DNA from: Candidatus Eiseniibacteriota bacterium
Lineage (GTDB): Bacteria; Eisenbacteria; RBG-16-71-46; SZUA-252
Direction of reading: 5' to 3'
Assembly: GCA_036380835.1 (NCBI GenBank)
Contig: DASVDZ010000081.1
Coordinates: forward strand, 18,749-82,748
DNA length: 64,000 nt
Shown: in pieces, positions 6,886 to 64,000 of the stretch
Numbering within the stretch: position 1 is the stretch's first letter
How the letters are laid out: every line of letters starts with the position of its first letter
Notes under the pieces: generated by a model
The model's input: only the letters and a program-made list of their open reading frames with translations
Told to the model about the DNA's origin: nothing
Databases searched by the model: none
Made by a program: the position numbers and the translations under genes

Positions 6886-6935
6886 CGGAGATGTCGATTG
6901 ACACGCGTCACCCCCGCGTTACGATCTACCCCCGC

Positions 6936-8417
6936 ATGCATTCAACCTTGGACGTTCTGCCGGCGTCGGTCCGAGACGCGCTGCTCGCCGTCCATCTGCT
7001 GGTCTGGGCCGTCCTCGCCGTCTTCGGCCTCCATCGGCTCCATCTGATCCGGCTCTACAAGCGGCGCCGCCGCGATGTCGCGCGTCCGGTGCCTCCCGAC
7101 GAGTGGCCGCGCGTGACGATCCAACTCCCGGTCTACAACGAGCGATACGTGGTCGAGCGCCTGCTCGAGGCGGCGGCCGCCATGGACTACCCCGCCGCGC
7201 GACTGGAGATCCAGCTTCTCGACGATTCCATGGACGAGACCGTGGCGATCGCCGCCGCGAAGGTCGCGGCGCTCCGGGCGCGCGGACTCGACGTGGCGCA
7301 CGTCCGCCGCCCCACGCGCGCGGGTTTCAAGGCGGGCGCCCTCCAGTACGGGCTCGAGCGCGCGAAAGGGGACCTCGTGGCGATCTTCGACGCGGACTTC
7401 GTGCCGCCCCCGACGTTCCTGCGCGACCTGGTCCCCTACTTCTCGTCGCCCGACGTCGGCATGGTCCAGGCGCGGTGGCGCCACCTGAATCAGGACTACT
7501 CCATGCTGGCGCAGGCCCAGGCGATCTCGCTCGACGGCCACTTCGTGATCGAGCACGCGGCGCGGATGGCGGGCGGGCGATTCTTCAACTTCAACGGCAC
7601 CGCCGGAATCCTGCGCCGGGCGTGCATCGTCGACGCCGGCGGATGGCAGGCGGACACGCTGACGGAGGATCTCGACCTCTCCTATCGCGCGCAGATGAAG
7701 GGCTGGCGCTTCGTGTTCGCGCCGGAGGTCGGCTGCCCCTCGGAGCTCCCGGTCGAGATGAACGCCTTCAAGGCGCAGCAGCACCGCTGGGTCAAGGGCT
7801 CGATCCAGGTGGCGCGGAAGATCCTCCCCGGCCTCTGGCGCTCGTCCCTTCCGCTCGCGATCAAGGTGGAGGCGACGTTCCACCTCACGTACAACGTGGC
7901 GTACGTGTTCCTTCTCCTGCTCTCCGCGATCGTCTATCCGGTGGTCCTCGCGCGGTACGAGAGCCGGAGCCTCCTCTTCACGGCGGTCGACGCCGTGCTC
8001 TTCCTCACGGCGACCTTCTCCGTGCTCTACTACTTCGCCACGGCGCAGCGCGAGTCGCGATCCGACTGGCGCGCCCAGCTCCGCTACGTTCCGTTCGCGA
8101 TGTCGCTCGGGATCGGGCTCGCCGTCAACAACTCGCGCGCCGTGCTCGAGGCGATCTTCGGATCGCGCGGCGACTTCCTCCGCACGCCCAAGTTCCGGAT
8201 CGAGGGGCGGACGGATCGTTGGCGGGGGAAGCGTTACCGCTCGGCCGTCAGCGGCTGGGCTCTGGTCGAGCTGTCGCTCGGGGCCTACTTCGCGTGGGCG
8301 ATGCTGGCGCTCGTCCACCACCATCTCTTCGCGCCGCTGCCGTTCTTCCTCCTCTATCTATTCGGGTTCCTGTACGTGGGCGGAGTCTCGCTCGTCCACG
8401 CCGTGCGCCGGGCCTGA
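6936..8417 (+). CDS. Processive family-2 glycosyltransferase (cellulose-synthase-like, D,D,D,QxxRW)
   Basis: DDS, DADF, TED and the QQHRW(VKG) motifs are present. A TM hairpin precedes the catalytic domain and several TM helices lie at the C-terminus. Alternative in-frame starts are 6891 and 6822. Confidence 0.8.
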   Translation: MHSTLDVLPASVRDALLAVHLLVWAVLAVFGLHRLHLIRLYKRRRRDVARPVPPDEWPRVTIQLPVYNERYVVERLLEAAAAMDYPAARLEIQLLDDSMDETVAIAAAKVAALRARGLDVAHVRRPTRAGFKAGALQYGLERAKGDLVAIFDADFVPPPTFLRDLVPYFSSPDVGMVQARWRHLNQDYSMLAQAQAISLDGHFVIEHAARMAGGRFFNFNGTAGILRRACIVDAGGWQADTLTEDLDLSYRAQMKGWRFVFAPEVGCPSELPVEMNAFKAQQHRWVKGSIQVARKILPGLWRSSLPLAIKVEATFHLTYNVAYVFLLLLSAIVYPVVLARYESRSLLFTAVDAVLFLTATFSVLYYFATAQRESRSDWRAQLRYVPFAMSLGIGLAVNNSRAVLEAIFGSRGDFLRTPKFRIEGRTDRWRGKRYRSAVSGWALVELSLGAYFAWAMLALVHHHLFAPLPFFLLYLFGFLYVGGVSLVHAVRRA

Positions 8418-9740
8418 CCCGGGCCGGCGTCCCGCTCCCCGAGCCTCGGTCCCGGCCCGGACGCGCCGCGCGCGGCCCGACCGCCGCGCGGCGGCCGCCA
8501 CGATCCACGCCGAGACGAGCCCGCCGTACTCCACCCACGGCATCCACGGCGGGAGCGCCCAGAGGCCCGTCGCGCGGAACGCCGGGAGCGGGAGGTAGGA
8601 GAGCGCCACGAGCCCCGAGAAGAGGAGGAATCCCGCGTCCGGGTGGAGCGGCAGGAGCGCGACGGCGGGCACGAGGTACCACGGAAAGACCGTGGGGCTC
8701 GCCAGGAGGAACGCGATCCAGAGGGCGAGCGTGGCGCCGGTCGCCGTGCGGGCGCGCCAGGCGATGCCGAGCGACGCGGCGGCGAGCGCCACCGCCAGGA
8801 TGAGGCGCGGCGGATCGCCCCGGTGGAAGTGCGGGCGGAGGATCGCGTAGAGCGAGCCGTTCCACTCCCAGTTCCTCGTGTAGGCCTCGAGGCCCCCCCA
8901 GAGCGCGCGCCCGGCGCCGGTAAAGGGAGCGAAGAGGAGCGCGCCCGCGACGGCCGCCACGGCAAGCGTCGCCCACCGCCGGCGGCGCGCGACGGCCGGG
9001 ACGAGGAGGAGCGGGACGTACTTGGTGAGCGCGGCGAGCGCGAACGTTACGCCGGCGCCGATCGAGCGCCCCCGCTCGAGGAGCGCCAGCGAGAGAACGA
9101 GGAACGCCGCCGTGGCGAGGTCGACGTGGCCGCTCCCGTAGCACTCGACGACGACGAGCGGGTTCCAGTAGTAGAGTAGGAGCCGCTCGGCCGGCAATCC
9201 GCGCCGCGCGAGGAGCCACGCGAGCGCCGCGACGAGAAGGGCCTCGAGGAGGAAGAGGAGCCCCTTCCAGGCGCGCGGCGAGGGCTCGACGCGCGCCGCG
9301 GCCCCGAAGAGGAGCTCGGCCGCGGGCGGGTAGACGGTCGGCACGTCGGCATGGTTGAGCTTCGCGAAGAGGCCGTCCCGAAATCGCGCGAGCGCGGGGT
9401 CGCTCGGCGGATGGGGGTAGGGATTGACCCCCGCCGCGACGAGGCGGCCGTCCCAGAGATAGCGGTAGAGATCCTCGGAGAGGGTCGGCGCCGACGGCAG
9501 GAGCAGGAGGCGCGGCACGAGCCCCACGAGGAGCACGAGCCAGAGGCCGCGCGAACGGCCGCCGGTCGCGGCGCCCCCGCGCAGGACGACCCAGGACGCG
9601 GCGAGGTAGAGGGCGTGCGCAGCGCCCCAGACGAGGACGAGCGTCCGGACGTGCCGGCCGAGGTCGCCCGCCCACGAGAGCGACGCGAGGGCGGCCGCGG
9701 CCGGGATGCCGAGAAGGAGGAGCAGCGCTTGTCGATTCAA
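8358..9740 (-). CDS. Polytopic membrane glycosyltransferase-like protein (DUF2029 / GT87-like)
   Basis: At least 10 predicted TM helices. DLYRYLWDGRLVAAGVNPY resembles DUF2029/mannosyltransferase families. The 3' end overlaps the GT2 gene by 60 nt, convergently. Confidence 0.5.
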   Translation of the reverse strand: MNRQALLLLLGIPAAAALASLSWAGDLGRHVRTLVLVWGAAHALYLAASWVVLRGGAATGGRSRGLWLVLLVGLVPRLLLLPSAPTLSEDLYRYLWDGRLVAAGVNPYPHPPSDPALARFRDGLFAKLNHADVPTVYPPAAELLFGAAARVEPSPRAWKGLLFLLEALLVAALAWLLARRGLPAERLLLYYWNPLVVVECYGSGHVDLATAAFLVLSLALLERGRSIGAGVTFALAALTKYVPLLLVPAVARRRRWATLAVAAVAGALLFAPFTGAGRALWGGLEAYTRNWEWNGSLYAILRPHFHRGDPPRLILAVALAAASLGIAWRARTATGATLALWIAFLLASPTVFPWYLVPAVALLPLHPDAGFLLFSGLVALSYLPLPAFRATGLWALPPWMPWVEYGGLVSAWIVAAAARRSGRARRVRAGTEARGAGRRPGSGPAHGVDERDSAHVQEPE

Positions 9741-40985: not shown

Positions 40986-41095
40986 CGCGCCGGTGGCCGG
41001 AGGGCCTGTAACGGCCGGTTGACGCCGCGTAGGGGGGCTTGGTACCGTTCCCCTCGTTCCACGCCGCGTCCCCCAGAAAGGAGTATTTCCCTTCC

Positions 41096-42460
41096 ATGAG
41101 GCTGTTTCGAGGATTGTGGGTGGGGGCCAGCCTCCTCCTGGTCCTGGCAGGCTGTTCGAACAAGAGCGACAAGGTCAAGGGCGGAGGAACCTACACCCCG
41201 CTCATCACCGGCATCTCCATCAGCACCGAGCCGGCGGTGCGGGGGATCCCCAACCAGGTCACGGTGCTCGTGACCAACGTGAACGGCCTCCCGATCACGT
41301 ACCACTGGAAGGCGGCGTCCGGAGCGATGACCGACACGACGGCCGCGACCGCGACGTGGACCCCGCCCGACACGATCGGGACGTACGACCTCACGGTCTC
41401 GATCCAGGCCGAGGAGGGGGACAACCACTACTTCAAGACGGAGACGTACCACGTCTACGTCGACAACGAATTCGAGCGCTGGACCCGGTCGGAGGCGATC
41501 CAGATGGACGAGGCGCCGATCCCGGGCGGCGGCTTCCTCTACTCGGAGATCCGGAACAACGCCACGGGAGAGTCGGACGTCTGGCGCATCGACACCCCGG
41601 GCGGCGGCTCGACTCAGCTGACGCACGGATTCTTCAGCGCCACCTCGCCGACGCCGCGCGCGGACAAGGCCGTGTTCGATTTCCGGGCCGTCGCGACCGG
41701 GTCGGCGGGATTGCCGGGCCTCTGGCAGCTTCCCTGGGGCGGCGGCGACTCGACCACGGCGCTGCTCCTGGCGCGGGCGAACGGCAACGACCAGCGTTCG
41801 CTCGTCTGCCCCCGCTTTTCCCGGACGGCGGCGTACCTCCTCTACGGCACCGACTCGGTCGGCTTCGGCTACACCGCGGACTATCCGCACCCGACCTTCC
41901 GCGAAGCGGGCGCCCTCATCACAGCTCCCTACCGCCTGATGGGGGTCGACTCAACGGGCAGCATCGTTCTCGGATCCGTGGGATTCCCGTTCATGAATTG
42001 GGGCGGGCCGGACGGCAACAGCGACGGCATTCCCGACTCGGTGATCGCCCAGGGGGTGGAGTTCCTGGGGTTGCAAGGGAACGAGCGGAACATAGGCCTG
42101 TACAAGTTCGCCAGCGACGTCGAGCTCCATGTGAACGACGATCCGCTGCCGTTCTTGAGCGACCCGACCGCCGGCGACCCGGATTGGTCCCCGGACGGCC
42201 AGCACATCGTCTTCACGAAGAGGAACGGCATCGCGGGCGACCGGGACATCTGGATCATCAACGCGCACTCGAGCGATCCGGCCAGCGCGCTCCGCGTCAC
42301 CTTCGGCCCCGCGGACGACTCGCATCCCCGCTTCTCGGAGGACGGCTCGACGATCTACTTCATCTCGAATCGCGCGGACCGCTACGGATTGAACGGCGTC
42401 TTCGGCACGGAGCGTCGGGGCACGAACATCTGGAGCGTGGAACGCTTTGACAAACCCTAG
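41096..42460 (+). CDS. Lipoprotein with C-terminal TolB-like/PD40 beta-propeller repeats
   Basis: AAAGGAG RBS. Lipobox LLLVLAGCSNK. The C-terminal blades read ...DPDWSPDGQHIVFTKRNGIAGDRDIWIINA... and ...PRFSEDGSTIYFISNR... Confidence 0.6.
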   Translation: MRLFRGLWVGASLLLVLAGCSNKSDKVKGGGTYTPLITGISISTEPAVRGIPNQVTVLVTNVNGLPITYHWKAASGAMTDTTAATATWTPPDTIGTYDLTVSIQAEEGDNHYFKTETYHVYVDNEFERWTRSEAIQMDEAPIPGGGFLYSEIRNNATGESDVWRIDTPGGGSTQLTHGFFSATSPTPRADKAVFDFRAVATGSAGLPGLWQLPWGGGDSTTALLLARANGNDQRSLVCPRFSRTAAYLLYGTDSVGFGYTADYPHPTFREAGALITAPYRLMGVDSTGSIVLGSVGFPFMNWGGPDGNSDGIPDSVIAQGVEFLGLQGNERNIGLYKFASDVELHVNDDPLPFLSDPTAGDPDWSPDGQHIVFTKRNGIAGDRDIWIINAHSSDPASALRVTFGPADDSHPRFSEDGSTIYFISNRADRYGLNGVFGTERRGTNIWSVERFDKP

Positions 42461-53526: not shown

Positions 53527-54443
53527 CCGCGACGCCCGCGGCGAAGCCGCGCACGTTCCAGGAGATCCTGCTCCGTCTCGAGCAGTTCTGGTCGGACCAG
53601 GGGTGCACCCTCCTCCAGCCGTACAGCGGCGAGGTGGGCGCCGGCACCTTCAACCCGGCCACCTTCTTCCGCGTGCTCGGCCCGGAGCCGTGGAGGGCGG
53701 CGCACGTGGAGCCTTCGCGCCGGCCCAAGGACGGCCGCTACGGGGAGAATCCGAACCGGCTCCAGAACTTCTACCAGTACCAGGTGATCCTCAAGCCCTC
53801 GCCGGACGACGTGCTCGATCTCTACCTCGAGAGCCTTCGCTGGATCGGGATCGACCTGAAGGAGCACGACGTCCGGTTCGTCGAGGACGACTGGGAGTCG
53901 CCGACGCTCGGGGCCTGGGGCCTCGGCTGGGAGGTTTGGCTCGACGGCCAGGAGATCACCCAGTTCACGTACTTCCAGCAGGCGGGAGGGTACGACCTCG
54001 ATCCGATATCGGCGGAGATCACGTACGGCATCGAGCGGATCGCCTGCTATCTGCAGGGCGTCGAGCGGATCATGGACCTCCAGTGGTCGAAGGACCATCG
54101 CTGGGACGATCTCTTCCTGAAGGGGGAGGTCGAGTGGTGCCATTTCAACTTCGAGCAGTCGAACGCCGAGCTCCTCTTCGAGCAATTCGAGAAGTACGAG
54201 CGCGAGGCGATCCGCCTCCTCAAGATGGGCCTCGTCCTCCCCGGTTACGACTACATCGTGAAGTGCTCCCACGCGTTCAACCTCCTCGAGGCTCGCGGCG
54301 CGATCAGCGTGACCGAGCGCGTCGGAACGATCGCGCGCGTCCGGAAGATGGCGCGATTGGCGGCCGGCGCCTATCTCAAGCAGCGGGAGGAGATGGGGCA
54401 TCCGCTGGCGCGGACGGCGGAGGGGGCCCCGGCCCGTGGCTGA
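53523..54443 (+). CDS. glyQ: Glycine--tRNA ligase alpha subunit
   Basis: ...[18 protein letters not shown]..., ...[10 protein letters not shown]..., ...[22 protein letters not shown]...; GTG start overlapping the recO stop (GTGA). Confidence 0.95.
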
Positions 54444-56556
54444 AACGCTCCTCCTCGAGATCGGCTGCGAGGAGATCCCCGCGTCCTACATCGGGCCGGC
54501 GCTGAGCGAGCTGGAGTCCCTCGCCAGGGCGGGGCTCTCCGAAGCGCGCGTCGGCCACGGCGCGGTCGCGATCGCCGCGACGCCGCGCCGGCTTGCGCTC
54601 CTGATCGAGGGGATCACCGATCAAGGCGACCGAGTGCTCGACGTCCTCGGACCGCCGGTGAGCGTGGCCTTCGACGCGTCGGGCCGGCCGACGCCGGCCG
54701 CGCAGGGGTTCGCGAAGAAGGTCGGCCTGCCGCTCGAATCGATCGGGAGGAAGCCGGGGGGGAAAGGGGCGGACGTTCTCCACGCCCGCGTCCACGAGAA
54801 AGGGAAGCCGGCCGCCGAAGTGCTCCCCGCGCTCGTCGAGGCCTGGATCGGGGGCATCCACTTCCCGAAGACGATGCAGTGGAACGGGCGGGATCGATTC
54901 GCCCGGCCGGTCCGCTGGATCGTCGCGTTATTGGGCGACCGGATTCTCCCCGTCAAGGCCTTCGGGCTGAGCGCTGGCCGGAAGAGCCGGGGACACCGCA
55001 TCCACGCGCCCGGCTGGTTCGAGGTCGGGAAGCCCGGGGGCTACGTCGGGCTCCTCCGCGAGCGCGTGGTCATGGTCGACCGCTCCGAGCGCCTTCGAAC
55101 GATCCGCGACGAGCTGGCCCGCGCCGGCGCCTCGATCGGGGGCGCGCCCGTCGAGGATCCGGAGCTGCTCGAGGAAGTGGCGGACCTGGTCGAGTGGCCG
55201 GAGGCGGTGGTCGGCTCCTTCGACGCCTCCTACCTCGCCCTCCCGCGCCCCGTGATCGTCACGGCGATGCGGGCGCACCAGCGCTACTTCGCCGTGGAGG
55301 CCAAGGACGGCTCCCTCCTCCCGAGCTTCGTGATGATCCGGAGTGGGCGCGGGGAGGGCGCGGCCGAGATCCGGCGCGGCACCCAGGCGGTGCTCCGGGC
55401 GCGGCTCGAGGACGCGCGGTTCTACTGGGACAACGACCGGAAGGGCGGCCTCGAGGCGAAGGTCGAGGCGCTCCGAGGGATCGTCTGGCACGAGCGACTG
55501 GGTACGGTCCACGACCGCACCATGCGCATCGTGCAGATCACGGAGGATCTCGCGCGAACGCTCGCCCCGAAGGCCCGGGCCCACGCCGCGCGCGCCGCCT
55601 ACCTCTGCAAGGCCGACCTCGCCTCCGAGATGGTCCGCTCGGGGAAGGAATTCGCCGCGCTCCAGGGGATCATCGGCGCCGAGTACGCCGCGGCCTCCGG
55701 CGAGGACGCCGAGGTGGCCCGCGCGATCCGCGAGCACTACCTTCCGCAGGGGCCGTCGGATCCGCTGCCCGGCTCGATGGAGGGGACGCTGGTCAGCCTC
55801 GCCGACCGCCTCGAGGCCATCGTCGGAGCGTTCCGAGCCGGGCTCGAGGTGAGCGGATCGCAGGACCCCTACGGTCTGCGCCGCGCGGGGAACGGCATCG
55901 TCCGGATCCTCCTCGAGAAGCGGCTCCGATTCGACGCGATCGAGAAAGCGGCGTGGGTGGACGGGCTCTTCGAGAAGGCGGGGATCGGCCGGTTCGGGAG
56001 CGCCTCGTTCCAGGACTTCTGGGCGCAGCGCGTGGAGAGCGCGCTCTCGGACGCCGGCGTGCCGCACGATACGGCGGCCGCGGTGCTGGCCGTGCGTCCC
56101 GGCGACCCGCTCGACGTGCTGGCGCGCGCCCGAGCGGTCGACGAGATCCGCCGGAGCGACGACTTCGAGGGACTCATGGTCGGGTACCGTCGCGCCGCGA
56201 ACCTGCTCCGCTCGGCGTCGCCCGAGGACGTGGCCGCCGCGGGGCAGCCGATGGCGGAGCGCGCCGAAAATTTCGGCGAGAAGGCGGAAGCGGACCTCCA
56301 CCTCGAGACGAAGATGACCCGCCAAGCTGTCGAGACCTATTTACAGGCGGATGCCCCCGATTACGGTGCCGCCCTGAAGCACTTGCTCGGCCTCCGACCA
56401 TCCATCGACGCCTTTTTCGAGGCCGTGATGGTCATGGTGGACGATCCGGCGACCCGTCGCCGGCGGCTCGCCCTCCTCGACGCGGTGCGTCGATCCTTCC
56501 TCAGAATTGCCGATTTCTCGGCCCTCCCAACCGCTCCAGGTCAAAAATCCGTTTGA
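54436..56556 (+). CDS. glyS: Glycine--tRNA ligase beta subunit
   Basis: [15 protein letters not shown]..., ...RYFAVE..., a 706-aa typical GlyS. The start overlaps the glyQ end. Confidence 0.93.
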
Positions 56557-56581
56557 CATTAGCGGCTTTTTCCCCTATACT
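56553..56581 (+). promoter_or_regulatory. Consensus-like sigma-70 promoter
   Basis: TTGACA-N17-TATACT, with the -35 overlapping the glyS stop codon. It heads a ~440-nt GC-poor leader before the next gene. Confidence 0.6.
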
Positions 56582-56859
56582 GACGCGGTAAAGGAGGCAA
56601 AATAACTTGTCTCCCAACAGCCGCGACCGTTAGAACCGATTGAAATTACAGCACATGCACGACATCGCGAGGGCTGACGGTGCGGCTATTTCCGTCTATT
56701 GGGGAGATTCCATCCGACTGTCTGATTCGGTTAAATGACGAAGAGCGAAGGGGGTGAGAGGTCCAAGCGGCTTTGTTCTTACATCATTGATTACAATAAC
56801 TTACAACAAACACACAACCCGTAGAGATCCAATGAAAGGAGGTCGGTCAAGGCTGCGAA

Positions 56860-56908
56860 CGAGATCGCCCAAGAACGCTCGAGCACTGTCCCGACGAGCG
56901 GGCGATCT
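56860..56908 (+). other. Perfect 10-bp inverted repeat in the leader, a predicted RNA stem-loop
   Basis: GAGATCGCCC-N29-GGGCGATCTC. A second 6-bp pair AGTCCT/AGGACT lies at ~56960-56983. Confidence 0.45.
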
Positions 56909-57025
56909 CCGATGCATCACTCCAGGCTCGACTAGATGTACAGAAACCCGTGACGTTCGGTTCCAGAAAGTCTAGTCCTCCCGATCTAGGACTTCGTGTC
57001 AGGAAACTCTAAGGAGGATGTGAAC

Positions 57026-60000
57026 ATGCGGAAAACCTTTGTCGCCATTCTGGGCCTCGCGGCTCTCTGCGTGTGGGCGTTGCCCGCCTTCGCAGACAGT
57101 CAGAGTGACCCGCCCTTGGCCAAGGCGTACACGCCTCTCGATGGGCGCCCTGGTTACAACGGGTCGATGGCAAAGAACGGAAGTCTGGGGGCGACCCTGA
57201 GCGGCACCGTGATCAATCAGGGGTCGGCCGGCACCACGGTCTATTTCCTCTACCCCGGCGCCTGCCAGCAGCGGGCTCTCGGAACGTGGGCGCCAGTGTC
57301 CGCGGAGCAAGCGGACAGCATGGACACCTACACCGAGGGCGGGACCGGCGGCTACGGCGTGGCCGACCAGTCGGTCAAGGAACGCCTTTGGCACGTCGTG
57401 AACAGCTCCGTGCCGGCGGGCCAGCGTCCCGCGATTCTCGCGGGCACGGCCTCGCTCTGGTGCGGTAAGTACGATCCGAACTGGGTCGTCCAGGTCGGGT
57501 ATCCGAACACCACGTTCCAGATCCTCTACATCGACACGGGCGCTCACGCGGGCTCCTACACGCTCACGTACAAGGCGAACCAGAGCTCGGAGATCGGGTA
57601 CGACTACGTCTACCTGATCGGTGGCGATCCGACCCTGTCGGACGCCATGCAGAACTCGCGCGCGAAGTTCGACGAGGCCACCTCGTCGGGCGCGAGCGGC
57701 GGCTCGGACCTCCTGGTGACGTGGACGGGCTCGATCCTCACGACGACGCCGGGCGCGACGAACCCGCCGATCGGCTCTCAGATCATCGGTGACGGCGCGG
57801 CTCAGCCCTCGTCGATCGTTCCCGTGACGATCAACATGCCCAGCAATTATCGCGACATCTACTTCCTCTTCACGGCGGACTGCGGCTACTCGAGCGAAGA
57901 CGGCAACTGGCCGAACAGCCATGGCCAGATCTTCGACGACGTCACGTGCAGCGACAACGGCGTGATCTTCGGCGACGGCACCGCGCCGTCCGGCTCGGAC
58001 GCTTGGTTCGGCGACGTTCTCCAGGGTACCTACGGCTCGCAGGGCTACATCGCGGCGCGCGTGGCGCCGGGTACCGGCGAGCTCTGGCAGATCGTCAACG
58101 GCGGCTTCTCGACCACCGCGGACAACTGCCAGCTCCAGAAGAACGACACGGCGGATCGCATGTTCTTCGGCGCCGATGCTTCCTCGAAGAAGACGATCGC
58201 CGGGCAGTGGAATTCGATCATCTCCTGCACGTTCCCTGTTCCGGTCGGAACGGCCGAGCTCAACGCGTTCTGGGGCGAGTACCTCGACCTCCCGCGCGGC
58301 GCCGGATTCGTTCAGGATTCGGAGTACCGCTTCTACAAGGGCGGTGTCTGGAGCAACTGGCAGGATACCGATCCCGACGGCGGCGTCATCACCTCCGTGA
58401 TCAAGACGTGGCTCGTGGATGGAGGCAATCTGGCGTCGGCCGTCCAGGCCGATTCGGTCCAGATTCGGTACGACCTCCGCTGTATCACGGCGTTCGCCAC
58501 GGACCGCATCACCTGCGGCCAGCTCGACTACGGGATCCTGTACGACGACTTCTATCTGCAGGTGTTGTCGGGCATCCCGGCGCCGCTCATCTCGTCGTTC
58601 CCGAGCGCGGTGCCTCAGACGATGTTCGTGGACGGCACCATGACGGGGCTCAATTGCACGACGCCTCCGTGCTGGCCCGGAACGCGCGGCACCAACACGC
58701 CCAGCGCTCCGGCGGGTCAAGTCATCACGGATAACGTCAACTCCCCGTACGGCGACTCGCTCTGGTGCGGCATTGCGACCGGTCTGCGCAAGAACGGCAT
58801 GGGCGTGAACTGGCACAATGGCTACAGCAAGCTGGTCAACGGCGGCCGCACGCTCGCGTTCACGAACGCCACGTTCGTGCCGGCGTACGACACGCCTCGG
58901 GCGATCTATCGCCTGTTCGATCCCACCTCGCAGAGCTGGAGTGCGTTCGACTCCACGGAAATGGCTGCGGACAACATCCAGATCTCCGGTGCCGACACGG
59001 TCAACGCCGTGGCGTTCGGCGCTCCGGCGTATCGCTGGGATTGGCCGCCGATCGACAAGGCCGGCCAGAACCTGCCGGGCGGCTTCACGATCAACGGCGT
59101 CGGCGCGTACAACAACCTCGCGTTCCTGCCTCGCGGAACGCGGATGCAGTTCTACTTCAAGGGCGTCGACATCAACGGCGGCCGTTCGTACATCTTCGGC
59201 GCCGGCGGCCTGCCGCGCGAAGTCGAAGATCTCCCGACGTTGCCGGGCGGCTCCATCGTGGCCCCCGACATCATGGAGATGGACGTGCTTCCGCGGAAGT
59301 ACGCCGTCGGCTCGGGTACCTCGCTCCTCGCGGGCAAGACCAACACGCCGGTCTTGAACCTCGACGGCTCGTACTCGGTCTGGAGCTTCGGTCAGGATCC
59401 CGTCACGCAGGCGCTCCGCGGTATGGGCGTCCGCGCCGACCGGTATCGTCTGACGCAGGGCCTCGACAACGCCGACAACTTCGGCGGCCATGAGCTCTTG
59501 GGCCCGCCGGACAATCAGCGTGCGGCACGCAGCTCGAACTACTTCCCGAACCTGACCGAGTACGGCATCCTGGATTCGCTGTCGAAGTGGTATCGCATCG
59601 TGATCCAGTCGGGTCACACCCGCACCGCGACCCTCGAGGACGAGTCGGATTCCCGGCTTCTCGAAGCGTGGTGGGCGGCCGAGACGCCGGGTTCGAACGG
59701 CGGCGACCGTTGCGTCTTCGTCTCGGGCGACGACTACTTCAACGCGCTCCTGAACATCCCCGCCGGCGAGGCGAGCTCGCGCCGGATCTCCTACGGCCAG
59801 AACGTGCTGGGCGTCAACAGCGCGAGCGGCGCGTGGGTGGGGGCGAATGCGGTTCCGTATCCCACGGTCGAAGATCGCTTCTCGGCTCCGGGCGCCGGGC
59901 CCGGCCTCGTGACCGGCTATACGTACCCGGTCGACGGCGGCTGCCCCGGTCCGAACCGGTTCGACGCGCTCACGAAGATCGGTGCGTCCACGGCTCAGAA

Positions 60001-60688
60001 CATCGCGTTCTACCCGATCTTCTCGGGTATCACGGATGTCGCGGGCGTGGCGAACATGACCGAGCGTGACGCCGTGACGGACCACGATCGCAACAAGGCT
60101 CTTGGCTACGGCTTCTCGATCCAGTTCGTCCGGAAGGCCGGAATCCCGACCAATGCCGCGAACTACGTGCGGTCCGGCGTCCAAGAGCGTATGCAGATCC
60201 TGTACAAGTTCCTCGCGAGCTGCCGCGGTCCGCGGAGCGGTGCGGCGGGCGATACGTCCGTCTGCTGGCCGTGCCCGACGGACGCGAACATGACCGGAAA
60301 CTGGGCGACTCTGACCGGCTTCCAGACCGGCAGCTACGGTCCGCTCTACCCGATCCAGGACAACCTGGCGGCGACGGGCGTCGAGGTCTCGGATGCTTCC
60401 GCGGCCCCGAAGGTCAACAAGCTCGAGGGTAACTACCCGAACCCGTTCAATCCGCAGACGACGATCAAGTTCACTGCGGCGCAGGCGGGCAAGGTGACGC
60501 TGCGGATCTTCAACGTGGGCGGCCAGCTGGTCCGGACGCTCACCACGAAGGCCGAGGTCGGGCCGAACGAAGTCCGCTGGAACGGCAAGCGTGACGACGG
60601 CGCCCAGCTCGCGAGCGGTGTCTACTTCTACAAGGTTCGTTTCGTCGACGGCACCGAAACGGGTAGCCGGATGGCGCTTGTGAAGTAA
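57026..60688 (+). CDS. Large secreted protein (1,220 aa) with C-terminal T9SS/Por sorting domain; the mature region matches no family I recognise
   Basis: AAGGAGGA RBS 7 nt before ATG. Signal peptide MRKTFVAILGLAALCVWALPAFA. The C-terminal 80 aa read ...NYPNPFNPQTTIKFTAAQAGKVTLRIFNVGGQLVRTL...GVYFYKVRF...MALVK, which is the TIGR04183 / FlgD-Ig-like Por_Secre_tail pattern. No HExxH, GxSxG or other catalytic signature was seen by eye. Confidence 0.8.
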   Translation: MRKTFVAILGLAALCVWALPAFADSQSDPPLAKAYTPLDGRPGYNGSMAKNGSLGATLSGTVINQGSAGTTVYFLYPGACQQRALGTWAPVSAEQADSMDTYTEGGTGGYGVADQSVKERLWHVVNSSVPAGQRPAILAGTASLWCGKYDPNWVVQVGYPNTTFQILYIDTGAHAGSYTLTYKANQSSEIGYDYVYLIGGDPTLSDAMQNSRAKFDEATSSGASGGSDLLVTWTGSILTTTPGATNPPIGSQIIGDGAAQPSSIVPVTINMPSNYRDIYFLFTADCGYSSEDGNWPNSHGQIFDDVTCSDNGVIFGDGTAPSGSDAWFGDVLQGTYGSQGYIAARVAPGTGELWQIVNGGFSTTADNCQLQKNDTADRMFFGADASSKKTIAGQWNSIISCTFPVPVGTAELNAFWGEYLDLPRGAGFVQDSEYRFYKGGVWSNWQDTDPDGGVITSVIKTWLVDGGNLASAVQADSVQIRYDLRCITAFATDRITCGQLDYGILYDDFYLQVLSGIPAPLISSFPSAVPQTMFVDGTMTGLNCTTPPCWPGTRGTNTPSAPAGQVITDNVNSPYGDSLWCGIATGLRKNGMGVNWHNGYSKLVNGGRTLAFTNATFVPAYDTPRAIYRLFDPTSQSWSAFDSTEMAADNIQISGADTVNAVAFGAPAYRWDWPPIDKAGQNLPGGFTINGVGAYNNLAFLPRGTRMQFYFKGVDINGGRSYIFGAGGLPREVEDLPTLPGGSIVAPDIMEMDVLPRKYAVGSGTSLLAGKTNTPVLNLDGSYSVWSFGQDPVTQALRGMGVRADRYRLTQGLDNADNFGGHELLGPPDNQRAARSSNYFPNLTEYGILDSLSKWYRIVIQSGHTRTATLEDESDSRLLEAWWAAETPGSNGGDRCVFVSGDDYFNALLNIPAGEASSRRISYGQNVLGVNSASGAWVGANAVPYPTVEDRFSAPGAGPGLVTGYTYPVDGGCPGPNRFDALTKIGASTAQNIAFYPIFSGITDVAGVANMTERDAVTDHDRNKALGYGFSIQFVRKAGIPTNAANYVRSGVQERMQILYKFLASCRGPRSGAAGDTSVCWPCPTDANMTGNWATLTGFQTGSYGPLYPIQDNLAATGVEVSDASAAPKVNKLEGNYPNPFNPQTTIKFTAAQAGKVTLRIFNVGGQLVRTLTTKAEVGPNEVRWNGKRDDGAQLASGVYFYKVRFVDGTETGSRMALVK

Positions 60689-60722
60689 CCCCCTTCCGTA
60701 GGGGTTTCAGTCCGTAGGCGAT

Positions 60723-60752
60723 CGGGCCGCCGGGGTAACTCCCGGCGGCCCG
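60723..60752 (+). terminator. Rho-independent-type terminator hairpin
   Basis: CGGGCCGCCGGG-gtaact-CCCGGCGGCCCG, a perfect 12-bp stem 34 nt after the stop. The tail is A-rich rather than T-rich. Confidence 0.5.
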
Positions 60753-60766
60753 TCGCACAAAATCAG

Positions 60767-60796
60767 TTGACACCGTTTCCGCCGCATTGCTAACTT
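60767..60796 (+). promoter_or_regulatory. Candidate sigma-70 promoter
   Basis: TTGACA-N18-TAACTT, 66 nt upstream of the next start. Confidence 0.4.
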
Positions 60797-60862
60797 AGTC
60801 GAGTCCCCAAGACATCACCCGAACACCTGCCGGTGCACAAGCCAGTCTCCTCGGAGAACGAA

Positions 60863-62434
60863 ATGCCCGCATCCAGTACGTGGCGGAACTTCGCCCGTGT
60901 GGTTGTCCCCGTCATTTGCTGTCTCGCCGTCTTCGTCTCCTGCGCCAAGGAGCCGCTTCGCGTGGATCGAAACCGCCCGCCACGGACGTTTCTCGTCTCG
61001 GCCCCGGCCGAAAGTTCGTCCTGGTCGTACCACGTCCACCTCTACTGGCGGGGCGAGGACAGCGACGGATACGTGACGGGATTCCTGTGGGCCTGGGACG
61101 ACTCCTCGATCGGCGCCTACCGGTACACGACGAAGACGGACAGCACGTTCGATCTCGACGTCAACGATTCCACCCTCTTGGTCGGCGGCGGGACCAGCCA
61201 GGTGCAGCCGGGCCAGACGAAGCCCCACACGTTCTACATTCGCGCCGTCGACAACCTGGGCAAGTCGGATCCGGTCGGGACGATCTTCAATCATCGCGTC
61301 TACAACGCCTCGACCGACGAGCCCAGCGTGCGCTTCGTGGGCGCGCTCCCGAGCGGGGCCGGGATCATCGACACGCTCTGCGACGGAGCGCCGTTCAAGA
61401 TCTGCTGGACCGGCAGCGACCCGGATGGCTACGTCGCGTACTACCGATGGGACATGGGGCCCTATTCCAGCCCGCTCCAGACCGACACCTGCGCCGTCTT
61501 CAACGACCCGAACGTGCCTGGATCGCCGCCGATCACGAGCGGCGTCTACACGTTCACGGTCACGGCGGTGGACAACGCGTTCGCCGCCAGCAAGGCCTCC
61601 TCGGGCGGCCGCTTCCTCCTCGTCGCCAATCACGATCCCGACACCTGGTTCGTCGACTCCTCGGGCGGAACGGGCGAGCCGGTGGGGCACTACTACCAGC
61701 CCTATCGCGACGGCCAGCCGGTCAACCCGACCGAGGTGCACACCTTCTCCCAGGGGGACACGATCCCCTACCGATCCACGGTCTGGTGGAGCTGGGGATC
61801 GTCCGACGATCACTCTGGCAGCGGATGCAGCGAGGGCAACATCATCAGCGGTTGGTCGCTGATCCTCCGCACGGGCACCCGAAACAATTTCGAGCCCTAC
61901 GTCATCGGCTACCAGGACCAGATCTGCACCGATGGGGCCGGCGCGCCGGTTCGCTTTACGACCAACGACCCCGCGGTCGTCCTGCAGGAGTGCAATCTCC
62001 AGAGCCTGGTGCTCGACTCCCTGGACGCGGGACGCGGGATGCAGGTCACCGTGGCCTCGCGCGACGGATCCGGCCGCGTCGACGGCTCCCCGGCCTCGTT
62101 CTCGTTCAACTGCGACTTCCCGCCGCACATCGATTCGCTCTTCGTCCAGGACGTCACGCCGACGAGCGGCCCGAACGCGGGGCAGCCCTGCAAGCGGTTC
62201 TATTGGGTCGCGCGCGATCCGGAGGACGGGTTCACGAAGGAAGCCGAGATCACGATGGACGGCATTCAGAAGATCCAGCTCACGAGCTGGGAGCAGGAAG
62301 TCATCATCCCCGAGTCGAGGTTCCGGAGCTTCTCCCCCCTGAATCCCCATACGGTGGAGGTCCGAGTCTCGGATCGGGCCCACATCCGATCGGACCAGGT
62401 CCTGTCCATTCAATTCGACGTGACGTACCCCTAG
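60863..62434 (+). CDS. Lipoprotein with repeated PKD-like (WxGxDxDG) beta-sandwich modules
   Basis: GGAG 7 nt before ATG. Signal peptide plus lipobox ...VICCLAVFVSCAK. The motifs HVHLYWRGEDSDGYVTGFLWAWDD, FKICWTGSDPDGYVAYYRWDMG and CKRFYWVARDPEDGFTKEAEITMDG recur. The alternative GTG is at 60833. Confidence 0.7.
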   Translation: MPASSTWRNFARVVVPVICCLAVFVSCAKEPLRVDRNRPPRTFLVSAPAESSSWSYHVHLYWRGEDSDGYVTGFLWAWDDSSIGAYRYTTKTDSTFDLDVNDSTLLVGGGTSQVQPGQTKPHTFYIRAVDNLGKSDPVGTIFNHRVYNASTDEPSVRFVGALPSGAGIIDTLCDGAPFKICWTGSDPDGYVAYYRWDMGPYSSPLQTDTCAVFNDPNVPGSPPITSGVYTFTVTAVDNAFAASKASSGGRFLLVANHDPDTWFVDSSGGTGEPVGHYYQPYRDGQPVNPTEVHTFSQGDTIPYRSTVWWSWGSSDDHSGSGCSEGNIISGWSLILRTGTRNNFEPYVIGYQDQICTDGAGAPVRFTTNDPAVVLQECNLQSLVLDSLDAGRGMQVTVASRDGSGRVDGSPASFSFNCDFPPHIDSLFVQDVTPTSGPNAGQPCKRFYWVARDPEDGFTKEAEITMDGIQKIQLTSWEQEVIIPESRFRSFSPLNPHTVEVRVSDRAHIRSDQVLSIQFDVTYP

Positions 62435-62468
62435 CGACGAACGGCCGATGACAAGGAGCGATGATTCC

Positions 62469-64000
62469 ATGGCGCGCGGTTCGATGATTCGACTTCCGAT
62501 CGTACTGCTTCTGGCGCTCGCGCTGGCCGGGCTCGCCGGCTGCGCGAAGAGCGTGAAACCGGGCAAGCCGCCACAGCCGTTGAGCCCCGAGACCCAGATC
62601 ACGTACGCGCCGCTCCAGGGCGACACCGCATCGTTCCGGGTCCATTTCTACTGGAGCGGATGGGACAAGGACGGAGAGGTCGTCCGGTTCCGCTGGGCCG
62701 TCGACGCCGACACGATCAAGGACGAGCACGACTGGCATTCGACGACGTCCAAGGACACGACGCTTCTCTTCCTCGTGGATCCGGTCAAGGAGATCCAGGG
62801 GCACGTCTTCTGGGTGGCCGCGGAGGACAACGACGGCCACATCGACTCCACTCCGGCGAAGCGATTCTTCTCGGCGAAGACCATCCCGCCGACCTCGAAG
62901 ATCGACCGGGGCCCGGACGGGAAAGGGCTCCCGATCGGACCCAACTTCACGTTCGAGTGGTCGGGAATCGACCCGGACGGCGGCGAGACCGGCGGCTCCG
63001 CCCCGGTCGACTCGTTCGAGTACCTCCTGCTGCAGGTGCGCGGGATCGCGGACACGAACACTCCCCCGACTCACGACCCGCTGCCCGATTTCGACGAAAA
63101 GGTCTACTTGGGCCTGATCAACGAAGCGACGGGCCGGACGCTGCTCGATCGGCCGGCCCCGGGGAGGCACAGCGATTGGGCCTGGCAGGGCGTGCGGGGA
63201 ACCCGGAAGCGCTTCCGGAACGTCACTCCCGCGCCCTACGTCTTCGCCGTTCGAGCGGTCGACATCGCCGGCGCGACCGAGAAGAATCTGAAAATCACGG
63301 ACAACATCCGCTACTTCAACGTGACGAACAGGAACCCTGGCCCGCTCCTCACGATCTGCAGCAGCGTGCTGAACAAGTGCCTCCCGGCCGCGTCGGGTCC
63401 CGAGGACATCGTCCGGAAGCAGATCCAGGTCTTCGAGGGAGAGACGGTCTCCTTCTCGTGGACGGCGTCCGCGGAGTTCTACGGGGGCGAGGTGGTCGGA
63501 TACACGTTCGCGATGGACGACACGACCACCGCGGAATGGGGATCGCTGACCCTCCTCAAGACGGGGGCGACGTTCTCGCGCAACGATCTCCCCCCGGGCG
63601 CTCACAACCTGTACGTGCGCGTCGTGGACGACGGCGGGCTGGTCACGAACGCCAAGATCCCGCTCTTGATCGTCCATCCCGACTTCAAGGACCCGGGTGC
63701 CGAGAAGAACGCGCTCTACGTCGACGACTTCGGGACGCCGGGGGCGACGCCGCTCAACGCGGGCGCGAATTACCTGTCGGATGACGCGGAAGACATCTGG
63801 TGGGCGGATCACATCACGACGCCGCTCACCCAGGAATTCGGAGTTCCGTTCACGCAGTACGACACCGTCCGGAACAACATCGGGATCGAGGGGCGTGGCG
63901 TTCCCGACCCCAGCGAGCTGAAGAAGTACCGCGTCGTCATCTGGAGCGTCGACCTCAACAACACCGGGTCCTCGCCGACCGGGCTCTGGAAGACGCTCGT
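62469..64000 (+). CDS. Paralogous PKD-like-repeat lipoprotein, 3'-truncated by the window edge
   Basis: ATG ...MARGSMIRLPIVLLLALALAGLAGCAK (lipobox). The reading frame stays open to position 64000, which is why it is absent from the ORF track. The same motif recurs: FRVHFYWSGWDKDGEVVRFRWAVDAD, FTFEWSGIDPDGGETGG, VSFSWTASAEFYGGEVVGYTFAMDD. Confidence 0.7.
   Translation, partial: MARGSMIRLPIVLLLALALAGLAGCAKSVKPGKPPQPLSPETQITYAPLQGDTASFRVHFYWSGWDKDGEVVRFRWAVDADTIKDEHDWHSTTSKDTTLLFLVDPVKEIQGHVFWVAAEDNDGHIDSTPAKRFFSAKTIPPTSKIDRGPDGKGLPIGPNFTFEWSGIDPDGGETGGSAPVDSFEYLLLQVRGIADTNTPPTHDPLPDFDEKVYLGLINEATGRTLLDRPAPGRHSDWAWQGVRGTRKRFRNVTPAPYVFAVRAVDIAGATEKNLKITDNIRYFNVTNRNPGPLLTICSSVLNKCLPAASGPEDIVRKQIQVFEGETVSFSWTASAEFYGGEVVGYTFAMDDTTTAEWGSLTLLKTGATFSRNDLPPGAHNLYVRVVDDGGLVTNAKIPLLIVHPDFKDPGAEKNALYVDDFGTPGATPLNAGANYLSDDAEDIWWADHITTPLTQEFGVPFTQYDTVRNNIGIEGRGVPDPSELKKYRVVIWSVDLNNTGSSPTGLWKTL

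Follow-up and report, generated by a model that had tools for sequence, protein, structure and literature searches.

A conserved, structured RNA leader precedes the gene for a predicted T9SS cargo protein in a native locus of Candidatus Eisenbacteria

What kind of locus begins where the housekeeping gene glyS ends in Candidatus Eisenbacteria, an uncultured soil phylum with no cultured member and almost no functional description? In the 64,000-nucleotide (nt) stretch of contig DASVDZ010000081.1 that we analysed (the window), the last 7.4 kb hold a promoter, a leader of ~440 nt, a gene for a large protein with a type IX secretion system (T9SS) sorting tail, a GC-rich hairpin, a second promoter and two lipoprotein genes (Table 1). 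A preliminary description of the window had named these parts, treated the leader as a mere spacer and hinted at horizontal acquisition. The parts were borne out, but the spacer and the acquisition were not: the leader is a conserved, structured, non-coding RNA with a new motif, and the locus is native to the phylum, conserved across it and not acquired. We tentatively favour, at close to but short of an even chance, a native envelope locus in which the leader sets the output of a T9SS-exported binding protein displayed at the surface on a carrier body, with the lipoproteins as likely partners.

The leader runs from the −10 hexamer of promoter P1 to the start codon of the large gene, and its measured length and base composition agree with the ~440 nt near 50% GC first described. 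Alignment of the glyS-to-large-gene spacer from four loci (the window, L001, L002 and L008) gave a mean column identity of 77%, with long invariant blocks, and two blocks from this alignment (TGACGGTGCGG...AGGGGGTGAGA) served as an exact-match search pattern. This pattern found 11 true leader loci in 185,579 species genomes, one site per genome and all in Eisenbacteria metagenome-assembled genomes (MAGs) or obviously mislabelled bins, together with 11 further loci from metagenomes; chance matches in L014, L028 and L031 (Fibrobacteria-labelled) were removed after alignment. Among 24 non-identical leaders, 127 of 451 aligned positions were invariant, 22 of them by construction of the two-block search, and a further 57 were near-invariant; the 22 pattern-fixed positions were also present in three loci found through the protein. 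Nucleotide identity between the window and its relatives was 65–68% in the leader, 63–64% in the large coding sequence (a figure that leaves out L001) and 69–72% in glyS. Because the leader stays this similar despite 4-fold degenerate sites that are only 36–54% identical, that is, saturated at such third-position GC (GC3), purifying selection on it must be as strong as on coding DNA.

Two helices of the leader, P1 and P4, show compensatory changes. In helix P1, the 5′-terminal hairpin, 99% of cells in the 24-sequence alignment were paired and 4 of 8 pairs had changed on both sides. Helix P4 was captured by a covariance model, R1, built from three sequences, which had one match in each of the 24 leader loci and none elsewhere in 370 kb that included the paralogue loci. 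Across the alignment 89% of helix P4 cells were paired, compared with 27–43% in slid controls; 11 of 19 pairs had changed on both sides, and the covariation score of 0.282 exceeded that of shuffled alignments (0.152; 0 of 500 reached it). Independent minimum-free-energy (MFE) folds of all 24 leaders gave the same P4 hairpin from different stem sequences. RNAalifold on a MAFFT alignment recovered the structure in part, with the middle tier of helix P4 misaligned, and alignment to the covariance model solved this. The long-range helix P2 was 96% paired and mostly invariant, its 3′ arm lying within the search pattern so that the invariance is partly by construction, and encloses a conserved interior of ~40 nt; helices P1 and P2 were both present in every single-sequence fold. 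In helix P3, whose GGGGGUGAGA box was likewise part of the search pattern, GUGA:U(U/C)AC pairs formed in 24 of 24 sequences, and the apex differed in sequence and formed a hairpin throughout. The segment between GGGGGUGAGA and GAAAGGAGG is A/U-rich, length-variable and weakly structured. We make no claim on a possible GCUCGCUUUG:CAAAGGGGGU helix or on other ways in which the G-rich boxes might pair, which are ambiguous.

At its 3′ end the leader holds stretches complementary to the translation start region of the large gene. The ATG at 57026 is preceded by UAAGGAGGAUGUGAAC, and a 7-base-pair helix between the Shine–Dalgarno (SD) sequence and an upstream anti-SD can form in 24 of 24 sequences, next to a 4-base-pair UUCC:GGAA helix that was 96% paired. 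The GGAA pairing bases, which lie in the codons CGG AAA, are invariant and an ACC codon is near-invariant, synonymous positions included; near-fixed synonymous positions at codons 2–3 are consistent with constraint at the RNA level. Alternative partners of an invariant GGACU box are AGUCC (95% paired), a pairing that would free the SD, and GGUUC (98% paired), and we detected no covariation in these alternative pairings among the 24 leaders. A switch operating through alternative GGACU pairing is plausible. Three extra SD-like boxes are conserved in the leader, namely AAAGGAGG in helix P1, GGGGGUGAGA and GAAAGGAGGU at 56834, and neither AAAGGAGG nor GAAAGGAGGU has a conserved start codon at initiation distance.

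Might the conservation reflect something other than a leader, such as a separate gene for a small or large non-coding RNA, a leader peptide or dense DNA-level transcription-factor sites? Such explanations could draw on the long invariant blocks outside the supported helices, an unremarkable whole-leader MFE and the several SD-like boxes, which might start mini-ORFs. We consider them quite unlikely, however. The 24 leaders share no open reading frame (ORF), and their segment lengths vary by non-multiples of three; the sole recurring mini-ORF (8 codons), considered as a leader peptide, is broken by a 1-nt deletion in L020. The terminator scan listed no terminator-like site between promoter P1 and the ATG. 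In addition, the compensatory changes in helices P1 and P4 imply selection at the RNA level, the 3′ end is complementary to the SD and first codons of the large gene, and the leader invariably lies directly 5′ of that gene and never elsewhere: every leader locus with flanking sequence has glyS on the 5′ side and the large gene on the 3′ side, and the leader is absent upstream of the large-gene paralogue described below.

Leaders with some of these properties are known. The STAB-SD element of cry3A has the sequence GAAAGGAGG. Our leader resembles the cry3A STAB-SD, the ompA 5′ untranslated region (UTR) and S-layer gene leaders in having a strong distant promoter, a 5′-terminal hairpin and SD-like GAAAGGAGG boxes far from the start codon. 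SD-like stabilizers in long leaders have been described for cry3A (PMC12970973). Unlike these stabilizing leaders, the Eisenbacteria leader is much larger, contains far more invariant sequence and several extra conserved helices, and has a true SD that is predicted to be occluded, which suggests regulation rather than stabilization alone. With SD-sequestering riboregulators (riboswitch platforms and RNA thermometers) and large 'ornate' RNAs it shares an invariant anti-SD, mutually exclusive pairings and covarying upstream helices, but none of 4,227 Rfam families matched at the gathering score across the whole window, three matches over 56400–57150 were at chance level (E 5–7), and ~440 nt exceeds the length of typical riboswitches.

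Transcription of the leader would start near promoter P1, the best promoter-like site within the last 8 kb of the window and, as first noted, a near-perfect sigma-70 promoter overlapping the glyS stop: the TGA of glyS (54436–56556; Pfam tRNA_synt_2f) lies inside the −35 hexamer. All leader loci with upstream DNA have a TTGAC −35 and a TATAC −10, the −35 being TTGACA in most and TTGACT in two. We also observed that the −35 hexamer sits in the loop of a 3–4-base-pair hairpin (window 56545–56575) followed by a T-run, that the same hairpin occurs in L001, L009, L011 and L017, and that its arms change compensatorily (CCG:CGG, GCTA:TAGC, CCGG:CCGG). Hairpin and T-run may together form a small terminator for glyQS that overlaps the promoter.

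The large protein has the features of a T9SS type-A cargo with a promoter and a hairpin of its own. Its predicted Sec-type signal peptide, MRKTFVAILGLAALCVWALPAFA, was read from the translation and is conserved in relatives, and its C-terminal domain (CTD) scored above the cut-offs of FlgD_ig PF13860 (40.3 bits, cut-off 27), Por_Secre_tail PF18962 (30.9, cut-off 27) and TIGR04183 (36.4, cut-off 23). Neither Pfam nor NCBIfam gave a family match outside aa 1137–1212, in agreement with the initial reading that the sorting domain is the sole recognizable feature and that no hydrolase, adhesin or toxin family fits. PorU, PorZ and M6-like (NF052323) identities were considered and rejected, as those models match the CTD only. 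A word-index search found at least 154 full-length relatives (1,150–1,350 aa, 47–74% identity), and an exhaustive HMMER search over 1.84 billion representatives returned 76 clusters and no remote relatives; the window's protein is 100% identical to that of an NCBI contig named 'MAG TPA: Candidatus Eisenbacteria bacterium'. AlphaFold2 modelled the protein confidently from 73 sequences (pLDDT 86.5, pTM 0.85). Foldseek comparison of the model to the PDB gave generic jelly rolls only (TM-score ≤0.14), and a profile search of PDB sequences gave only the FlgD and PorZ CTDs.

The resemblance to type-A cargo (TIGR04183/PF18962; gingipains, 'T9SS-dependent M6-like inactivated metalloprotease') extends to the Sec signal peptide, a large multi-domain passenger with adhesin- or carbohydrate-binding-module (CBM)-like jelly rolls and a C-terminal immunoglobulin (Ig)-like sorting domain of ~80 aa. 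It differs in that the passenger, jelly rolls plus a ThuA/GATase1-like domain, matches no cargo family and the tail scores higher as FlgD_ig than as Por_Secre_tail. The ThuA/GATase1-like alpha/beta domain is a structural match to ThuA-like, GATase1-like and GIFT proteins (PDB 3rht, 2gk3, 4jqs and 1t0b; the IFT52 N-terminal domain; OST48), to which it has no detectable sequence similarity. The domain here differs from those proteins in its predicted extracytoplasmic setting, in its fusion to jelly rolls or Ig modules and in having no Cys at the putative nucleophile elbow; in sequence and secondary structure the putative elbow strand, RCVFVSGDD, lacks G-x-C-x-G, and the domain reads as non-catalytic. 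We found no literature on type IX secretion in Eisenbacteria.

Some relatives align with the large protein over residues 324–1110 only and have other N-termini. The same body is preceded by a Trypsin_2 head in P0243 (31.7 bits, cut-off 27.6) and, at sub-threshold scores, by Peptidase_C13 (legumain-like) in P0249 (21.6 bits, cut-off 22.8) and by alpha/beta-hydrolase/lipase matches in P0242 (23.2 bits, cut-off 24.3). The recurrence of one ~780-aa body under different heads indicates that body and CTD form a reusable carrier for secreted heads. In P0253, body and CTD lie under a VWA7_N-like N-terminal head. At least two genomes hold a second copy of the large gene, ~50% identical, without the leader and without the lipoproteins (L004–L007); in L004, L005 and L007 this paralogue is flanked by Ser/Thr kinase–AAA–TPR regulator genes. 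L004 shares a 3.12-Mb chromosome with L020, and 76 kb of one contig separate L007 from L008. A convergent gene of ~600 aa with PD40/Tricorn_N and FlgD_ig domains lies near the glyS-linked copy (L001 19190–21046, minus strand; L008 18732–20585, minus strand) and near the paralogue (L005 13530–15332, minus strand; L007 13589–15418, minus strand), a pattern that points to a segmental duplication long ago or to a functional link.

These heads bear on whether the large protein is itself an enzyme, for example a peptidase or a glycan-active protein, whose catalytic site in the all-beta head or in the ThuA-like domain has escaped recognition and whose substrate-binding partners are the lipoproteins. 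Protease and hydrolase heads stand at the same position in sister proteins, a lifestyle based on proteins and peptides is predicted for Eisenbacteria, and the large protein is very highly conserved: over 1,100 aa, many Asp, His, Cys, Arg and Trp residues do not vary. Structural matches, however, were to non-catalytic modules only, the HMMER search provided no remote relative linking to an enzyme family, and the putative nucleophile-elbow position reads SGDD, so that we regard an enzymatic role as improbable.

The large protein might alternatively be the subunit of a T9SS-dependent S-layer or major coat, anchored by the lipoproteins and made in very large amounts from its promoter, leader and hairpin. 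Rapid divergence is usual among S-layer proteins, of which TfsA and TfsB of Tannerella carry a T9SS CTD. The layout of the large gene would suit such a protein: it is monocistronic, has a near-consensus promoter and a long leader that holds a 5′ hairpin and SD-like boxes, and is followed by a strong hairpin. So would the acidity of the large protein (pI 4.9), its richness in Gly, Ala, Thr, Ser and Asn, its CTD and the adjoining surface-lipoprotein genes. Yet relatives are 47–74% identical with more than 100 invariant residues, the protein has 17 Cys, several in invariant pairs, the hydrolase heads on the same body suit a display scaffold better than a lattice, a leaderless paralogue exists, and no solved S-layer protein was matched in sequence or in fold. 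We therefore think an S-layer unlikely.

Downstream of the large gene, the preliminary description had placed a strong hairpin terminator. The hairpin is there (Table 1) and its GGGCCGCCGGG/CCCGGCGGCCC stem recurs in L001, L002 and L008; the U-tract is missing in the window, where the terminator scan did not list the site, and the relatives have a T-run after the stem. The second TTGACA promoter that had been described, promoter P2, has a weak −10, and its arrangement is conserved, with TTGACA and a TA..TT hexamer spaced by 17–18 nt in L001, L002 and L008. These loci and the window (60800–60862) also share a short, conserved 5′ UTR ahead of lipoprotein 1, GUCCCC...CCUGCCGGUG.ACAACCCAGUCUCCUCGGAGAAC.AAAUG, with a CUCC..GGAG repeat that overlaps the ribosome-binding site.

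The two lipoproteins are paralogues, as had been noted from their common WxGxDxDG module, of which each has two exact copies (BLASTP E 2e-13; hhalign probability 99.3% over ~330 aa, with lipoprotein 1 aa 6–336 homologous to lipoprotein 2). Lipoprotein 2 does run past the window; it is complete in P0315. The lipobox Cys is invariant in both family alignments. Each lipoprotein has three Ig-like modules, to which lipoprotein 2 adds a C-terminal ThuA/GATase1-like domain; homology between this domain and that of the large protein was considered and rejected (hhalign probability 8%). The PKD label given to the modules is weak, K319L-like_PKD scoring 16.7 bits against a cut-off of 27 in lipoprotein 1 and no PKD match being found in lipoprotein 2; they look like generic Ig/Fn3/PKD-like sandwiches. 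The families have at least 211 (lipoprotein 1; 47–74% identity) and at least 287 (lipoprotein 2) members, which are 47–88% identical over both families and annotated only as hypothetical, and neither contains a Pfam domain. Some genomes have two lipoprotein-2 genes on one contig (P0391/P0410, P0326/P0336 and P0408/P0425), and one such pair has consecutive locus tags, VFP58_05645 and VFP58_05650, after lipoprotein 1 (VFP58_05640). The lipoproteins recall the SusE/SusF-type lipoproteins of Bacteroidota, tandem Ig-like beta-sandwich outer-membrane lipoproteins encoded beside a secreted or surface protein, but have no sequence relationship to them, no SusC/SusD genes nearby and, in lipoprotein 2, a ThuA-like domain.

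Of 7 distinct loci with enough downstream DNA, 6 have the lipoprotein genes after the large gene (the window, L001, L002, L008, L012 and L017). In L025, the large gene is instead followed by a convergent 607-aa multi-pass membrane ORF (6804–8627, minus strand). Of the self-contained module first proposed, the conserved linkage thus stands, with no characterized enzyme family emerging as a full-length homologue of the large protein, but the genes form two transcription units, and both L025 and the paralogue lack adjacent lipoproteins.

Is the locus, then, a horizontally acquired island? Its GC content is below that of the preceding 56 kb (61–67% in the terminal 8 kb, mostly 64–67% with 61% in the kilobase holding the leader, against 64–77%, mostly ~70%, upstream), and it has its own promoters and hairpin. 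The compositional shift reported earlier is therefore present, but it is modest and confined to codon position 1: first-position GC (GC1) is 0.58–0.60 in the three terminal genes against 0.72–0.75, whereas their GC3 (0.879, 0.889 and 0.898) equals that of glyS (0.900). The GC1 drop reflects the composition of acidic, beta-rich secreted proteins rich in Thr, Ser, Asn and Gly and is not a foreign signature. We found no mobile-element genes or flanking repeats around the terminal 7.4 kb within the window. The order aspS–LysM–PhoH–7TMR_HD–YbeY–DUF502–RecO–glyQ–glyS–leader–large gene is common to the window and to L001, L002 and L008, three loci retrieved through the large protein alone, and is unchanged even though the large proteins are only 50–56% identical to the window's; downstream of glyS, each of the three has a ~460-nt gap, the large gene, a ~520-aa gene and a ~755-aa gene. 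Because GC3 is native and gene order is kept in relatives across the phylum, we reject horizontal acquisition, which we judge very improbable indeed.

Upstream of the large gene, the window encodes ClpB, a PD40 protein, a Cys/Met-metabolism pyridoxal-phosphate (PLP) enzyme, hisS, aspS, PhoH, 7TM-HD, DUF502, glyQ and glyS. The PD40 protein (41039–42457, plus strand; 473 aa, TolB-like beta-propeller repeat) lies between clpB and the PLP enzyme. Opposite the large gene lies an ORF of 1,061 aa (56999–60184, minus strand), one of many very long antisense or out-of-frame ORFs that ~70% GC produces as artefacts; their GC3 pattern is wrong for genes. The full glyS–leader–large-gene arrangement also occurs in L017 (JBLMWD010000121.1, 'Bacteroidota') and L018 (JBLMXB010000002.1, 'Hyphomicrobiales'), and close protein relatives occur in records labelled Bacteroidota, Hyphomicrobiales, Acidobacteriota, Limnocylindrales, Binatia or Planctomycetaceae; such oddly labelled contigs are probably mis-binned or mislabelled Eisenbacteria.

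Table 1. Features of the locus. Positions are nt of the window unless given as aa of the large protein or as positions in another locus.
Feature	Position	Strand	Details
Promoter P1, TTGACA-N17-TATACT	56553–56581	+	11/12 consensus matches; AAAAA just upstream
Leader, −10 to ATG	56582–57025	+	444 nt, 51.6% GC
Non-coding 5′ leader RNA	56587–57025	+	~440 nt; conservation, no Rfam match, no ORF, no internal terminator
Helix P1, 5′-terminal hairpin, GGAGGCAA / UUGUCUCC	56593–56614	+	8 bp; 5′ arm is the SD-like AAAGGAGG box
Helix P2, long-range, AGCCGC.ACCG.UAG / CUG.CGGU.GCGGCU	56619–56687	+	13 bp
Helix P3, invariant GGGGGUGAGA box and CUUAC, variable apex	56750–56782	+	Single-sequence folds; weakly supported
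Unpaired SD-like box GAAAGGAGGU	56834–56843	+	Near-invariant in 24 sequences
Helix P4, three tiers, UGCG / GAGAUCGCCC / GCUCG - UGUCCC loop - CGAGC / GGGCGAUCUC / UGCA	56855–56917	+	Covariance model R1
UUCC box (56961–56964) and anti-SD GUCCUCC (56975–56981)	56961–56981	+	Complementarity
SD GGAGGAU (57013–57019), ATG (57026) and GGAA (57030–57033, codons 2–3)	57013–57033	+	Occluded ribosome-binding region, predicted
Large gene	57026–60688	+	ATG to stop, 1,220 aa
Signal peptide, predicted	aa 1–24	+	Sec-type; MRKTFVAILGLAALCVWALPAFA, then DSQ
All-beta head	aa ~25–347	+	
Jelly-roll body	aa ~348–790	+	CBM/MAM-like
ThuA/GATase1-like domain	aa ~792–1109 (nt 59399–60352)	+	Structural match
T9SS type-A CTD	aa 1137–1212 (nt 60434–60661)	+	Profile matches
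GC-rich hairpin after the large gene	~60718–60756	+	13-bp stem; dG −46.5 kcal/mol, z −5.3
Promoter P2, TTGACA-N18-TAACTT	60767–60796	+	Read from the sequence; below the scanner's −10 threshold
Lipoprotein 1	60863–62434	+	523 aa; lipobox FVSC (...CCLAVFVSC, then AKE)
Lipoprotein 2	62469–64000, beyond window end	+	Full length 755 aa (P0315); lipobox LAGC (...LALAGLAGC, then AKS)
Paralogue copies of the large gene	10001–13700 in L004, L005 and L007; 4777–8646 in L006		

From this anatomy we infer a mechanism with two transcription units. In the first, a near-consensus sigma-70-type promoter at the glyS stop would drive the leader, the large gene and the GC-rich hairpin, and the leader would set the amount of protein post-transcriptionally. 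The 5′ hairpin and the extra SD-like boxes (AAAGGAGG and GAAAGGAGGU) may stabilize the mRNA and keep 30S subunits on standby. Initiation would be gated by pairing of the anti-SD and UUCC with the SD and codons 2–3, the AUG then lying in an internal loop, and the gate might be switched by the alternative GGACU pairing, a bound factor or a ligand. The large protein, judged by its sequence signals, would be exported by Sec and its type-A CTD then recognized by the T9SS; its body would act as a carrier displaying a working head at the cell surface, the copy in the window being an abundant surface-anchored binding or capture protein. From the second unit, with its own promoter, would come the two paralogous outer-membrane lipoproteins, probable surface partners of the large protein.

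Several observations weigh against this native-envelope reading. The helix P4 alignment was fitted to the covariance model, the exact-match search will have missed divergent leaders, and the folding energy of the leader as a whole is ordinary (z −1.25). Covariation neither supports nor rejects the SD-occluding helix or its alternatives, all of them being invariant. The large protein has more than 100 invariant columns, many of them Asp, Trp or Cys with several Cys pairs, at 47–74% identity, and such conservation fits an enzyme or machine part better than a passive surface or binding protein. Finally, the lipoproteins are a transcription unit separate from the large gene and are not adjacent to it in L025, the most divergent leader clade, or beside the paralogue. 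A bolder interpretation, which we consider doubtful, is that the leader is a new class of large phylum-specific riboregulator that exposes or hides the SD in response to a ligand, a protein or temperature, coupled to an undescribed T9SS-dependent surface complex built on ThuA-like domains.

A T9SS cargo, lipoproteins and an SD-occluding leader are each of a kind already known. New here are all three protein families, previously undescribed, the modularity of head and body and the 440-nt leader RNA motif; we found no description of the leader or the locus in the searchable literature. For Eisenbacteria, the locus thus yields three phylum-wide protein families with confident structure models, Pfam-less apart from the sorting tail of the large protein, and a modular design in which a common body around a ThuA-like domain would bring different hydrolase heads to the cell surface. 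The leader adds a large conserved RNA that Rfam lacks, in which two helices covary and the ribosome-binding site is predicted to be occluded. If it truly acts as a switch, a new structured regulatory RNA would thereby be linked to cell-surface biogenesis in the FCB superphylum.

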